DNA of 24,037 nucleotides from a virus. The stretch lies in UHGV virus genome UHGV-0103738. The stretch is one strand, 5' to 3'. Below the pieces are notes generated by a model, which ran no database searches, was not told the DNA's origin, and was given only the letters and a program-made list of their open reading frames with translations. Position numbers and translations under genes: made by a program. This document shows, piece after piece, positions 19,969 to 24,037 of this stretch; within the stretch, counting starts at the first letter, position 1, and every line of letters begins with the position of its first letter.

Positions 19969-20322
19969 ATGTTAAGCAAACATTTTTCTCGCAAGGAATT
20001 TAAATGTAAATGTGGAAAATGTGATTATGATACAATCGACGCTGAATTACTGGTAATTCTTGAGGATGTACGAGAGCACTTCGGGAAGCCAGTAATTATT
20101 AACAGTGGGAACCGTTGTCCGACTCATAATAAGAATGTTGGCGGCGCAACCAATAGCTATCATGTTCGAGGCCGTGCGGCTGACATTGTTATCAAGGGTG
20201 TCTCGCCTGATATTGTTCATGCTTATCTTGATGGGAAATATCCTACTCAATACGGCTTAGGAAAATATAAAACCTTTACGCATATTGATTCCAGATCAAA
20301 AAAATCACGGTGGAATGGATAA
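19969..20322 (+). CDS. Peptidase M15-family zinc peptidase, probable endolysin (117 aa)
   Basis: SD AAGGGGGTAA. Motifs SYHVRGRAADI and FTHID match the His/Asp zinc-binding signature of M15-type cell-wall peptidases. No signal peptide. Confidence 0.65.
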   Translation: MLSKHFSRKEFKCKCGKCDYDTIDAELLVILEDVREHFGKPVIINSGNRCPTHNKNVGGATNSYHVRGRAADIVIKGVSPDIVHAYLDGKYPTQYGLGKYKTFTHIDSRSKKSRWNG

Positions 20323-20328
20323 AACAAA

Positions 20329-20352
20329 AGCGCCTCTGGTGGGCGCTTTTTT
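20329..20352 (+). terminator. Rho-independent terminator ending the + strand late operon
   Basis: Stem AGCGCC / GGCGCT, loop TCTGGTG, followed by TTTTTT, starting 7 nt after the lysin stop. Confidence 0.7.
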
Positions 20353-20536
20353 GTTAGAATATGCTGGCGACGTTAGCTATATTTCTGACCATTTTTTCAT
20401 TATAGACAAATATACCGCAGACGATAAAGTCGTTTTTGACGAAGTAGATCCGTCTCTGGTTGAAGTAATGAAAGAACCGGAAGACCTAGAGCTTGATTTA
20501 AGCCAATTATAGACTCTCTAACGCAATTAAATTAAA

Positions 20537-20558
20537 AAGGGGTACAAATGTACCCCTT
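20537..20558 (-). terminator. Terminator for the convergent – strand unit
   Basis: Perfect 9-bp palindrome AAGGGGTAC / GTACCCCTT with a 4-nt loop. On the – strand it is followed by a T-rich tract (TTTAATTT) and lies 37 nt downstream of the stop at 20595. Confidence 0.6.
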
Positions 20559-20594
20559 AAAGCGTTTGGTTCGTTATACGGCGATTTAGGCCGC

Positions 20595-20852
20595 CTATGA
20601 TTTATTTTCTTGTTCTATGAAAATCTTTCTCACCTCATCAGAATAAATGTCTAGTGATTCCTCATAACATTTTCTGTATTCATCGTAATTACTGGTGGTC
20701 TTTTGACATAGCAATTTCAATGTCTTATGTGCTCCATCAATGAAAGCATCTTCTCTATAGGTTAGCGGTCTACGCATTTCTTGGTCTACGGTTGCCAATG
20801 CCAAGCAAGAATTCATAGATAAAATTAAACCTAAAATCTTAATCATCTTCAT
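20595..20852 (-). CDS. Small secreted protein (85 aa; start at ATG 20852, track gives a TTG start at 20867)
   Basis: N-terminal signal-peptide-like sequence MKMIKILGLILSMNSCLALA followed by a hydrophilic domain with two Cys. The start region overlaps the 3' end of the recombinase gene. Confidence 0.5.
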   Translation of the reverse strand: MKMIKILGLILSMNSCLALATVDQEMRRPLTYREDAFIDGAHKTLKLLCQKTTSNYDEYRKCYEESLDIYSDEVRKIFIEQENKS

Positions 20853-20856
20853 TAGC

Positions 20857-22536
20857 TTAAATTCCAAATTCTTGTAATGGACCTGGTATTTCTTCTTCTG
20901 GTTTCCAGTTCTTATCTGTCAGCATGTCTAAACATGGATGCAGAACAAGCCCGTTACTCTCCAGAATCTGCCTATCATTGATAGTCTTCAAATCAACGAA
21001 GATCCGGCCTTTCCTCGGTCCTCTTGAATTTTCTATTACAACTCTCTGGGTCTTGCCATCGATGTATTCCAGTACAAACAAGTTTTTGTACTTGTCAATC
21101 CTGCTACACCCGATCCGTTTTAGAGCTTGCTTAATCTTAAACCGGACCTTAATGCGATCCTCGTTGTAAACATCTTCTAAATCAAATTCTGCGAGCTTCT
21201 CCCAGCCTTGAGAGTCAACAGAATACATTTCCTCTTCTGCCATCTTAAGTTGATTGTAGAGTGTTTCACGCTCGCTATTGAGGGTAGTAATCTGATCGGC
21301 TAGCTCCTTCGTTGCTCCTGTCATAGCAGAAAGGGTAATCAGGTTATCAATCTTGCGTGATATTTCATCAATCTGTACTTTCAAAGCCGGAACCGGATTA
21401 GCCTTATCTTCAGCAATCCAGATTTTATCAGCCAGCAATTGCAATACAGCTTTCTCTAATTGGTCGCCGCGAAAACTCCAGTTTGTATGCACACATTCAA
21501 TACGACTAGAGCGCATTGCATCGCATGAATAACGATATTGGTTAGGCCGTCTGTTTGTTCCTTTCACCTTAACCATAGCGGAACCGCAATGTTCACATTT
21601 CAATAGACCAACACCACTAAGCAAGGGAATAGGTTTAGCTTCTTCTTTGTCTCCAAAGTTACATGCTCTAACACCAATGCTTTTCTTAAGGTGATAAAAC
21701 TCAGCGTCATCTAGCACACGAGGATAATAATCCTTTAACTCATACTTAACGCCATCTACAGAGATTTCCTTGATACCAATCAAAGCGCGGGTATGGAACA
21801 ACCTTTCAATCATTGCCCGTGACCAGTTTGAATGCCTCTTGTGACTTGCGGCTGGTGGTGGTGTGTATGTCGCGTTAAGGTGATCCAGTATCTCGGCGGT
21901 TGACCGTCCATTCCTGCGTAATTCCACAACTTCCTGAACAATAGGGAAGAAGACCGGATGAGGAAGCACATAACCAGATGTGGTATCAGTCCACCACATA
22001 TTCTTTCCAATTTCCTCGATTGCAACAGCCGGATTTTGTGGATTTTCTTGATGAGCTTTAATCTTAATCAGTGCGCTTGAGTTAGTACGATTGCGCTTAG
22101 TCTGGCTTTCCTCATTACCACGGATGAATAAAAGGATGGAGAACATCAGGTCCATCGGGTTAGCGGTAACAGTATCAAGCGAGTAGATCTTGTTATCCAT
22201 GCCAGTAACAATGGTTATCCCCCTACGGATGATTGAAAGGAATAACTCCTGTGCACTGACAATATCGGCACGGGATAAACGGTCCAAGTTTTCGATGAAT
22301 AGCCAGCTACCAACAGGAACGGATCTACCTATTGCATCAAGGAAACGAGATAGCGCCCCTGTTTTGGAGTTAGCACCCTTAAACGCAGATACACCCAGAT
22401 CCTGATAATCATTTACCAGTTCAAGGTCATACTTTACCGCAATCTCTCTAGCCATCCTGATTTGTCGTTCATAACTCGAACCATCATTCTGACGCATAGA
22501 CGAGAAGCGAATATACGAATACAGTTTAGTTTTCAT
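20857..22536 (-). CDS. Large serine recombinase (integrase/resolvase family, ~559 aa from ATG 22536)
   Basis: N-terminal catalytic motif YIRFSSMRQ (Arg/Ser/Gln spacing of serine recombinases) and ENLDRLSR. Central recombinase region. Cys cluster CEHCGSAMV...YRYSCDAM...ECVH (zinc-ribbon-like), then a coiled coil. Track start is a TTG at 22551; the first ATG is at 22536. Confidence 0.85.
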   Translation of the reverse strand: MKTKLYSYIRFSSMRQNDGSSYERQIRMAREIAVKYDLELVNDYQDLGVSAFKGANSKTGALSRFLDAIGRSVPVGSWLFIENLDRLSRADIVSAQELFLSIIRRGITIVTGMDNKIYSLDTVTANPMDLMFSILLFIRGNEESQTKRNRTNSSALIKIKAHQENPQNPAVAIEEIGKNMWWTDTTSGYVLPHPVFFPIVQEVVELRRNGRSTAEILDHLNATYTPPPAASHKRHSNWSRAMIERLFHTRALIGIKEISVDGVKYELKDYYPRVLDDAEFYHLKKSIGVRACNFGDKEEAKPIPLLSGVGLLKCEHCGSAMVKVKGTNRRPNQYRYSCDAMRSSRIECVHTNWSFRGDQLEKAVLQLLADKIWIAEDKANPVPALKVQIDEISRKIDNLITLSAMTGATKELADQITTLNSERETLYNQLKMAEEEMYSVDSQGWEKLAEFDLEDVYNEDRIKVRFKIKQALKRIGCSRIDKYKNLFVLEYIDGKTQRVVIENSRGPRKGRIFVDLKTINDRQILESNGLVLHPCLDMLTDKNWKPEEEIPGPLQEFGI

Positions 22537-22545
22537 ACCATTTCC

Positions 22546-22585
22546 AAACAAAAACGCCCCTACCGCGTATTATAACGATAGGGGC
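22546..22585 (-). terminator. Hairpin with T-run immediately upstream of the recombinase start (– strand)
   Basis: 10-bp stem whose one imperfect position is a G-U pair only in the – strand transcript, followed on the – strand by GTTTTTGTTT. The loop contains TTATAAT. Confidence 0.5.
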
Positions 22586-22599
22586 TAGGTGATTAAAGA

Positions 22600-23019
22600 T
22601 TAAAGAATTTCACGGCAGCTAATCAGGGAATAAGACGTATCACCTTTTTTAACATCAAATATAGGCGCGCCATCTACAGAATGCAGATATTTGATGTAGG
22701 ATTTACCATCTTCGGAACCATAATATTCTTCTTTCTCGTTCTTATCTTCTTTCAGTTTTGGGCTTTTGATTGTTTTATCAAATACCGGATCGTTGAAAGC
22801 AAATTGACTATTATCATCATTCACTCGAACCTTTACACCGATAAAACCACGGTATTTGCCAGACGGCGCATGATAATAACGGTCGCCATCACTCAGGTAG
22901 CGTGTATCATCTCCTTTATATTCGAAGTAGGAATTGCACACATAATAGGTATAGGTATTAGCATTCGCAGCACCAACCAAACCCAGAGCAAGAACAACAC
23001 CAGCGATAATCTTTTTCAT
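22600..23019 (-). CDS. Secreted (periplasmic) Tyr-rich protein (139 aa)
   Basis: SD AAGAGGAAA. Classic Sec signal peptide MKKIIAGVVLALGLVGAANA. Two Cys in the mature part. Confidence 0.6.
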   Translation of the reverse strand: MKKIIAGVVLALGLVGAANANTYTYYVCNSYFEYKGDDTRYLSDGDRYYHAPSGKYRGFIGVKVRVNDDNSQFAFNDPVFDKTIKSPKLKEDKNEKEEYYGSEDGKSYIKYLHSVDGAPIFDVKKGDTSYSLISCREIL

Positions 23020-23064
23020 AGTAGAATTTCCTCTTGTTGTTTGAATTACGATATATTTATATCA

Positions 23065-23187
23065 TTAAAAGTTAATGCTAATAATCAGCCCAAACACAAC
23101 CGCACCAATCAAATCAATCCAGTTAATACACAGCGAATATTCTTTCTTGAATGTCTTAGATGAAATGCCATCATGAAATTGTTTCAT
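23065..23187 (-). CDS. Small membrane peptide (40 aa), not in the ORF track
   Basis: SD-like GGGGTGAG before the ATG. Sequence MKQFHDGISSKTFKKEYSLCINWIDLIGAVVFGLIISINF has a C-terminal transmembrane helix. Confidence 0.3.
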   Translation of the reverse strand: MKQFHDGISSKTFKKEYSLCINWIDLIGAVVFGLIISINF

Positions 23188-23190
23188 TGC

Positions 23191-23271
23191 TCACCCCATA
23201 CTAACGACAATATAAGAAAGACTAATCATGGTTGTGAGACTACCTCCCACGAATGAGATAAAAGCTAACAT
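23191..23271 (-). CDS. Very small hydrophobic peptide (26 aa), not in the ORF track
   Basis: GGAG 8 nt before the ATG. Sequence MLAFISFVGGSLTTMISLSYIVVSMG. Its stop overlaps the SD of the next small ORF. Could equally be a leader or non-coding. Confidence 0.2.
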   Translation of the reverse strand: MLAFISFVGGSLTTMISLSYIVVSMG

Positions 23272-23285
23272 GTTTGATTCTCCAT

Positions 23286-23313
23286 TTAAAAAGCGGTGGG
23301 AATTACACCCACC
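23286..23313 (-). terminator. Terminator-like hairpin after the 145-aa gene (– strand)
   Basis: Stem GGTGGG / CCCACC with a 7-nt loop, followed on the – strand by GCTTTTT. Confidence 0.5.
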
Positions 23314-23327
23314 AAATTAGAAATTAA

Positions 23328-23765
23328 TTAAGCGCGAACGATGGTCAGAGTATCCAGCAAACCTTTTTCGTATAATTCGAAACACGTTTTATATTGCTCA
23401 ATCTTCCAACCGTAGCGGGTGATCTTATTCAGTAGAATAATCACGGTATTCTCATCTAGGTATTGTCCTTGCTTACCAATTACATATGACTCGCGGGATA
23501 GTCTCAGCTTACGGAAACCTTTAACACCTAATTCCTTAGCCACCGCTTTAATCTCGTTAATCTCACCTTCTGCGGCTACATATTCAGCGTCGATAATCTC
23601 AGTTGATGATCTCAGTGCTACCAGAACTAAGGCCATTGCTTCTTCTTCGGTACGAGCAACACCAGCTTTCTCGAAAGTCATCTCACCAAATTTACGAGTC
23701 ATAATATTGAACATTGTCTGTATTCCGTTTAAATCGGCGGGAATAGTACCCGCCAAATTAGACAT
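23328..23765 (-). CDS. Hypothetical protein (145 aa)
   Basis: ORF whose ATG overlaps the upstream stop (TAATG at 23763-23767). No recognised motif. Confidence 0.55.
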   Translation of the reverse strand: MSNLAGTIPADLNGIQTMFNIMTRKFGEMTFEKAGVARTEEEAMALVLVALRSSTEIIDAEYVAAEGEINEIKAVAKELGVKGFRKLRLSRESYVIGKQGQYLDENTVIILLNKITRYGWKIEQYKTCFELYEKGLLDTLTIVRA

Positions 23766-24037
23766 TACTTCTTGCTGATAAACTCTTTAGCGATAAAGTT
23801 GATTACTTCTTTCAGCTTCTTGTCTGTATCGATGCACGCTGGTAATTCTTCTTTAATATCCTGCGGCAGATACACATTGCCTTTAAAGTGGAGGAAACCA
23901 TCATTACCAATCATGTAGGAGAACATCCATTCACAATCGTTATCCGCTTCCCAGAACGCCACGGTCTCATCCCCAATCAAGGTAATGTCCATGTTGCGAC
24001 GCGCTGCGTAGTTGATGATTGCTTTACCGATGTTCAT
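23765..24037 (-). CDS. Hypothetical protein (90 aa as seen; ATG falls exactly at the window edge, so it may extend upstream)
   Basis: ORF ending in a TAATG overlap with the next gene. No recognised motif. Confidence 0.45.
   Translation of the reverse strand: MNIGKAIINYAARRNMDITLIGDETVAFWEADNDCEWMFSYMIGNDGFLHFKGNVYLPQDIKEELPACIDTDKKLKEVINFIAKEFISKK

Follow-up and report, generated by a model that had tools for sequence, protein, structure and literature searches.

The integrase end of the prophage

The window analysed here, meaning the whole 24,037-nucleotide stretch of DNA, is from a prophage of E. coli. A search of 5,426 complete E. coli genomes found it in about 60, and strains that carry it include E. 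coli O55:H7 DEC5A and FDAARGOS_946. In strain 2014EL-1346-6, which serves as the reference strain, the prophage is about 36 kb long and splits the hicB gene by its insertion, and its right end lies about 40 bp from the end of the window. The window encodes a large serine recombinase with the Pfam domains Resolvase, Recombinase and Zn_ribbon_recom and a match to PHROG 95, integrase. This protein is the sole site-specific recombinase annotated in the 36-kb prophage of that strain, where the other annotated mobile-element genes are all IS1 transposases, and we refer to its gene as int. No close relative of the region or of the hairpin described below was found in the GenBank phage collection, and scans of one genome per species, using the integrase protein as query and the hairpin as a pattern, gave no match. 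The nearest capsid among deposited phages is only 43% identical, leaving the prophage without a characterised phage as guide.

From the right prophage end to int, all of the features lie on the minus strand, in the order ORF90, ORF145, a hairpin (23314..23294), a 26-aa ORF, a 40-aa ORF, ORF139 and then the hairpin that is the subject of this study. ORF139 has no Pfam or PHROG match, and neither collection gave a function for the upstream ORFs. The 40-aa ORF is the gene directly upstream of the hairpin in relatives that are free of cargo. The 26-aa ORF (about 23191-23271, minus strand) is a second small unannotated reading frame, and both of these small ORFs are hydrophobic. The features that matter for the argument are as follows.

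20857..22536, minus strand: large serine recombinase of 559 aa, the prophage integrase (int), with its ATG at 22536; assigned from domain and PHROG matches
22543..22545, minus strand: GGA, a weak candidate ribosome-binding site 6 nt before the ATG, from reading the sequence
22546..22555, minus strand: T-run GTTTTTGTTT, the predicted U-tract of the terminator
22556..22585, minus strand: predicted terminator stem-loop, with 5' arm GCCCCTATCGT (22585..22575), loop TATAATAC (22574..22567) and 3' arm GCGGTAGGGGC (22566..22556)
22561..22563, minus strand: predicted transcription start, 6-8 nt after the candidate -10 and inside the 3' arm
22569..22574, minus strand: TATAAT, candidate -10 of an int promoter, wholly in the terminator loop
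22592..22597, minus strand: TTTAAT, candidate -35 with a 17-bp spacer, within a conserved TCTTTAATCACCTA block
22600..23019, minus strand: ORF139, a cargo gene whose N-terminus resembles a signal peptide; the TAA (22602..22600) is 14 nt before the stem
23065..23187, minus strand: conserved, unannotated small ORF of 40 aa (MKQFHDGISSKTFKK...ISINF), with homologues of 40 aa in Salmonella and 46 aa in Edwardsiella
23294..23314, minus strand: second terminator-like hairpin, after ORF145 (-11.4 kcal/mol), used as an internal control

The hairpin between ORF139 and int

Read along the minus strand, the junction runs ...CGTGAAATTCTT TAA TCTTTAATCACCTA GCCCCTATCGT TATAATAC GCGGTAGGGGC GTTTTTGTTT GGAAATGGT ATG (22536). 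A preliminary description of this DNA had placed a terminator hairpin at 22546-22585, with a T-run ending about 10 nt before the recombinase ATG, and these positions cover exactly a stem-loop on the minus strand at 22585..22556 and, at 22555..22546, the T-run, which ends 9 nt before 22536. The minus-strand RNA forms 11 contiguous base pairs (7 G-C, 2 A-U and 2 G-U) closed by the 8-nt loop UAUAAUAC, and the 40-mer has a folding energy of -20.8 kcal/mol (z = -4.9, with none of 200 shuffled sequences as stable). The hairpin is the strongest terminator-like site in 20000-24037 and is single-copy in the window. Its terminator shape exists on the minus strand only. In RNA of the plus-strand sequence, A-C mismatches take the place of the two G-U pairs, which reduces the stem to 7+3 pairs with an internal loop between them (-13.7 kcal/mol), and there is no T-run downstream. 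The earlier statement that a clean stem forms only in the minus strand is therefore right with respect to the terminator shape and overstated with respect to pairing, much of which the plus strand keeps.

More than 80 related loci from E. coli, Salmonella and Edwardsiella, with integrases 59-100% identical, were compared; the regions upstream of int came from E. coli (14 annotated loci), from IMG/VR (27 loci), and from contigs of Salmonella, E. fergusonii and Edwardsiella. When the hairpin variants were aligned with MAFFT, there were too many gaps for pairs to be counted formally, and each variant was therefore folded separately. All relatives with an integrase identity of at least 59% keep a stem-loop and T-run, 18-20 nt from the ATG, and their stems differ. 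The E. coli stem has 11 bp. In Salmonella, two versions have a stem of 9 bp (GCCCCTATC/GGTAGGGGC) and an 11-bp version also occurs, and the Edwardsiella stem has 7 bp (GCCCTGC/GCGGGGC, with inner pairs swapped). Loci L013 and L040 have the hairpin GCCTCGC-CTAGC-GCGGGGC with a tail of only 4-5 T, while locus L056 has an unrelated hairpin with a UUCG tetraloop. A T-run follows the stem in every variant, unrelated stems included, and within the E. coli form the stem varies at one base only, where A in place of G22566 makes an A-U pair of a G-U pair. Structure has thus been kept through changes of sequence in six stem versions, which represent few independent events and are supportive rather than strong statistical evidence.

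Two further comparisons extend beyond the individual variants. Such a hairpin was present in 10 of 68 unique regions upstream of int, versus 0.65 expected from shuffles, and a separate integrase clade, only 37-41% identical, has a terminator with a GCAA loop at the same position. The hairpin also lies just downstream of a co-oriented gene, with the stem beginning 14 nt after the ORF139 TAA and, in relatives, 6-16 nt past the stop codon of the gene upstream. The stem, the U-tract, the position after a stop codon and the kept structure are all those of an intrinsic (Rho-independent) terminator, and the minus strand of 22546-22585 is very probably just that, although its activity in termination is deduced from sequence. 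Literature searches on this prophage gave nothing usable, and no transcript start-site or 3'-end mapping was found in them. The element resembles the intrinsic terminators of Enterobacteria in its G+C-rich stem, its loop of no more than 8 nt, the U-tract directly after the stem, the location just past a stop codon and the strand specificity. It differs in that its loop, at 8 nt, is at the upper limit and is conserved in sequence, whereas terminator loops are normally free to vary.

An element that works as DNA was also considered: the inverted repeat might be bound by a dimeric regulator as its operator, or serve the recombinase itself as a site of attachment or inversion. The hairpin adjoins a recombinase gene, and the GCCCCTA...TAGGGGC arms are placed around the -10 hexamer in a geometry typical of operators. 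However, two of the 11 pairs are G-U and would be mismatches in duplex DNA, the T-run is kept even where the stem sequence has been replaced, and in Edwardsiella, L056 and L013 the arms do not keep their sequence. What persists is the shape, the T-run and the position rather than the sequence of the arms; this, like the G-U pairs, argues for a terminator acting at the RNA level rather than a DNA-binding site, and we regard a DNA-level role as extremely improbable. Attachment and inversion sites are excluded, because the prophage-host junction is about 1.5 kb away, in hicB, and because the element occurs as one copy per genome (single in the window and in each viral contig) and hence is not one of a pair of inversion sites.

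The probable terminator and the exchange of upstream genes

The hairpin is kept while the gene upstream of it differs, being ORF139, an 81-aa ORF (ORF81), a third gene (L011), or the 40-aa ORF directly (L039 and Salmonella). Between loci of the ORF139 and ORF81 types, homology stops exactly at the 5' foot of the stem (...CACCTA-GCCCC versus ...ACCAAT-GCCCC, with the hyphen at the foot), and other cargo types share a short conserved block of about 14-20 nt upstream of the stem. In IMG/VR, the hairpin pattern is found only on contigs that bear int, once per contig. Because the hairpin is identical behind differing upstream genes, and because homology breaks at or near the foot of the stem, these alignments assign the hairpin to the integrase side, with a slot just upstream that accepts cargo genes.

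The slot itself (22600-23064, minus strand) runs from the stop codon of the 40-aa ORF to the hairpin. Its occupant is ORF139 in the window and, in relatives, the 81-aa ORF, a lipoprotein of 130 aa (L056) or a protein of 349 aa (L013), and the slot is empty in L039 and Salmonella; all of these relatives keep the hairpin or a functional equivalent. The cargo junction is marked by a repeated TCTTTAA (22592-22605). The second hairpin (23294-23314) likewise marks a break in homology between different upstream genes.

This arrangement recalls the morons of HK97 and HK022, which are promoter-gene-terminator cassettes at cargo boundaries of temperate phages. As at moron boundaries, unrelated genes occupy one slot of similar prophages, and homology breaks at the terminator foot or within about 20 nt upstream of it. 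Unlike the terminator of a moron cassette, the one upstream of int is part of the backbone, on the integrase side: relatives free of cargo have it too, so the cargo did not supply it. Only L056 departs from this, its backbone terminator having given way to the UUCG terminator of the cargo. A terminator carried by a moron cassette was rejected as an explanation for the window, since the same hairpin is found in relatives that lack ORF139 (L039, Salmonella) and behind different cargo genes.

The short distance between the upstream reading frame and the stem raises another question, namely whether termination is regulated, either by a phage antiterminator or by a ribosome that completes the upstream ORF close to the stem, which would make int synthesis depend on how the small ORF upstream is translated or transcribed. 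In cargo-free relatives, 7-15 nt separate the end of the conserved ORF of 40-46 aa from the stem (14-15 nt in those of E. coli and Salmonella, 7 nt in Edwardsiella), the upstream stop codon of L056 is only 6 nt from its stem, and ribosomes so close to a stem can interfere with hairpin formation. Yet the distance from stop to stem is variable (6, 7, 14, 15 and 16 nt), the upstream ORFs are unrelated, and an Rfam search at the hairpin gave no family match at E <= 1. A conserved antiterminator pairing is absent as well, because homology between the upstream-gene types stops at the foot of the stem or within about 20 nt of it. Attenuation of this kind is thus very unlikely, and a riboswitch or attenuator with an antiterminator was rejected because the conserved upstream partner that it calls for is absent.

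The TATAAT hexamer and a candidate int promoter

The preliminary description had also reported that the loop contains TTATAAT, a perfect -10 hexamer with a weak -35. A perfect TATAAT does lie wholly in the loop, while the T that precedes it is the last paired base of the stem. The weakness of the -35 is borne out: TTTAAT (22597..22592), which abuts the ORF139 stop codon and shares no base with it, has 3 of 6 matches, with a 17-bp spacer. The E. coli site consequently falls below a scan criterion of 4/6 in each hexamer. Its -10 has the A at position 2 and the T at position 6 that a sigma-70 -10 hexamer calls for. In a sigma-70 weight matrix made of textbook frequencies, it scores best on the minus strand of 20500-24037 and ranks 20 among the 48,012 positions in the window; the Salmonella version of the site, with 4 of 6 matches in its -35 (TTCACC), scores above every window position. 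TATAAT occurs 16 times on the two strands of the 24-kb window, which gives a chance of about 1e-3 for any given 8-nt loop.

TATAAT is invariant in 15 of 18 unique upstream variants, representing every locus with the hairpin intact, and the other three are the IS911-disrupted L012 and two L013/L040 sequences. Four stem/loop versions retain it across E. coli, Salmonella and Edwardsiella, and their loops are TATAATAC, GATATAAT, GTATAAT and TTATAATA. The third-codon identity of int to the window is 0.36-0.49 in Salmonella and Edwardsiella, corresponding to a neutral hexamer retention of about 0.002-0.014, but the variants are related, so that these conservation statistics are not independent events and the probabilities are indicative only. 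In the fifth version, L056, an extended -10 (TGaTATAAT) is located directly 5' of the replacement stem, with the predicted start inside the 5' arm of that hairpin. This variant comes from one metagenome contig and was not found elsewhere in complete E. coli genomes or IMG/VR, making it a single observation. Furthermore, a TTnnnn sequence is found exactly 17 bp upstream of TATAAT in all seven contexts, several of them non-homologous; the seven -35 hexamers are TTTAAT, TTACTA, TTCACC (twice), TTTATT, TTTTCT and TTCATG.

Locus L012 (E. coli RMDEC332) has suffered an insertion of IS911 inside the hairpin loop. The 5' arm is gone and TATAAT is destroyed, with only its final AT left beside the IS end, and the insertion would disrupt both terminator and promoter.

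Could the hexamer be merely the remnant of an A/T-rich loop, kept by descent in a terminator that has no promoter function, with int expressed by read-through or by means of an antitermination factor? The full set of terminator features and the weak -35, below the standard scan criterion, are consistent with such a simple terminator. So are L013 and L040 (int 82-87% identical), which have a different hairpin, lack TATAAT and are without a good promoter (score 4.2), and whose tail of 4-5 T fits leaky termination. These loci indicate that a nested promoter is not indispensable. With TATAAT absent and the tail so short, int must be expressed another way there, perhaps by read-through, on which int of the L013/L040 type may depend.

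Several observations weigh against a loop without promoter function. TATAAT shows zero variation, in contrast to the varying flanking bases of loop and stem, to synonymous sites, and to the loop of the neighbouring terminator: the loop of the second hairpin is polymorphic, reading TGTAATT or TGCAATT in approximately equal numbers of loci. The hexamer is retained beside the unrelated hairpin of L056, and the 17-bp spacing of TTnnnn recurs in non-homologous upstream contexts. The 8-nt loop is also larger than those of the phage's other strong terminators in the window, which have 4-5 nt. Finally, among 295 entries for terminator-like hairpins in 1.2 Mb of fetched loci, a TATAAT loop is found in 17, all from this element's own family (they are overlapping registers of the same element) and none from an unrelated hairpin. 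A terminator lacking any promoter function thus appears doubtful, though it is the leading alternative.

The reading toward which this evidence leans, and which we regard as somewhat more likely than not, is an intrinsic terminator that stops cargo transcription and has int's own sigma-70 promoter nested inside it. The promoter would consist of the -35 TTTAAT at 22597..22592, a 17-bp spacer spanning the whole 5' arm, and the -10 TATAAT at 22574..22569 in the loop. It resembles those sigma-70 promoters in which a consensus -10 is combined with a weak -35 and a discriminator rich in G+C, sharing with them its TATAAT, its 17-bp spacer, its TT-starting -35 and the purines at +6 to +8. The difference is that spacer and discriminator here are the two arms of a terminator, and the G+C-rich discriminator, ACGCGG, is imposed by the stem. 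Both the promoter activity and the start site are predictions from these motifs and their conservation.

Two other roles for the region were rejected. The minus strand at 22585..22610 (GAAATTCTTTAATCTTTAATCACCTA) has no TTGC repeat, which removes a site for a CII-type activator as at lambda pI. A sigma-dependent pause at a -10-like element, aiding termination, would be expected to place the pause in the 3' arm and not at the release site.

How the nested arrangement would act

The proposed model distinguishes between two populations of RNA polymerase. A polymerase arriving from upstream, on transcripts of the small ORF and the variable cargo genes that lie between the phage attachment site and int, would copy both arms; the hairpin would then form and the transcript would be released at the U-tract, at about 22549-22546. 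A polymerase that starts at the nested promoter would begin at about 22563-22561, inside the 3' arm. Its RNA would have no 5' arm and could not form the hairpin, and would thereby escape termination; consistent with this, RNA from the predicted start folds with only -2.5 to -3.1 kcal/mol and has no hairpin before the U-tract. Such transcripts would pass the T-run and be translated from GGA-N6-AUG, a weak ribosome-binding site that in relatives is replaced, at the same place, by GAGGA or GGAGGG. Expression of int would in this way be insulated from whatever cargo lies upstream.

The preliminary description had envisaged a promoter whose -10 is sequestered in the hairpin. The promoter portion of that proposal gains support from the comparison, given the invariant -10, its relocation in L056 and the fixed 17-bp position of TTnnnn, but sequestration is the wrong mechanism, because polymerase reads the -10 in duplex DNA while the hairpin forms in RNA that comes from upstream. 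Sequestration by a DNA cruciform is unlikely, as the plus-strand arm is imperfect and the structure is worth only -7.3 kcal/mol as DNA. The predicted consequence of nesting is the reverse of sequestration, in that transcripts beginning in the 3' arm would be unable to form the terminator.

Expression of int from the nested promoter would probably be low and constitutive. On its own, a serine integrase does not carry out recombination between attL and attR; a directionality factor is required for excision (PMC5737554, PMC5310728). Low constitutive expression of int should thus be tolerable, because the integrase cannot excise the prophage without that factor.

Phage lambda offers a comparison with both likenesses and differences. 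The int gene of lambda is transcribed from the pI promoter, which is activated by CII, and is subject to retroregulation by tI/sib, a hairpin downstream of int that acts via RNase III. In both cases int has its own promoter with a weak -35 (a candidate in the present case), separate from the long upstream transcript, and a terminator hairpin decides which transcripts express int. Unlike in lambda, the hairpin here is upstream of int, there is no TTGC-N6-TTGC at the -35, and the integrase is a serine rather than a tyrosine enzyme.

A more elaborate version, in which the terminator-embedded promoter works as a switch linking int to upstream transcription and host physiology, seems unlikely. Upstream polymerases would cross the whole nested promoter before their release, leading to promoter occlusion, and int transcription would then be inversely coupled to upstream transcription. 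In addition, the discriminator ACGCGG forced by the stem would render int synthesis sensitive to ppGpp/DksA and to supercoiling. If this version were true, competence for integration would be tied to host physiology.

If the nested promoter is real, it would explain how cargo can be swapped beside int without disturbing int expression, and it would amount to a compact, natural 60-bp insulator made of terminator plus promoter, reusable in synthetic constructs. The element does not bear on a major open question. Both kinds of component, and their overlaps at gene boundaries, are known, and a conserved -10 in a terminator loop would be a neat variant rather than a new principle; literature searches turned up no usable account of an integrase gene preceded by a promoter that sits in the loop of a terminator.

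The prophage family itself may hold more practical interest than the terminator/promoter element. Large serine integrases about 82-99% identical sit in prophages within three E. coli genes, hicB, ycdX and codB (L001, L003-L014), and the Salmonella and Edwardsiella relatives (L042-L053) adjoin ycdY. This set of integrases at hicB, ycdX, codB and ycdY provides a natural series for changes of attachment-site specificity. In L001, an inverted repeat (TGTACCC-N12-GGGGTACA) is present at 23541-23570, about 5-35 bp past the window end, immediately upstream of ORF90 and beside the truncated hicB, and may belong to the attachment site, as part of its phage arm. At the other end of int, the terminator downstream of the gene (20558..20537) is followed by TTAATT-18-TATAAT, with the -10 at 20511..20506 (within 20506-20558, minus strand), a site from which antisense transcription would enter the lysis genes of the plus strand at their end.
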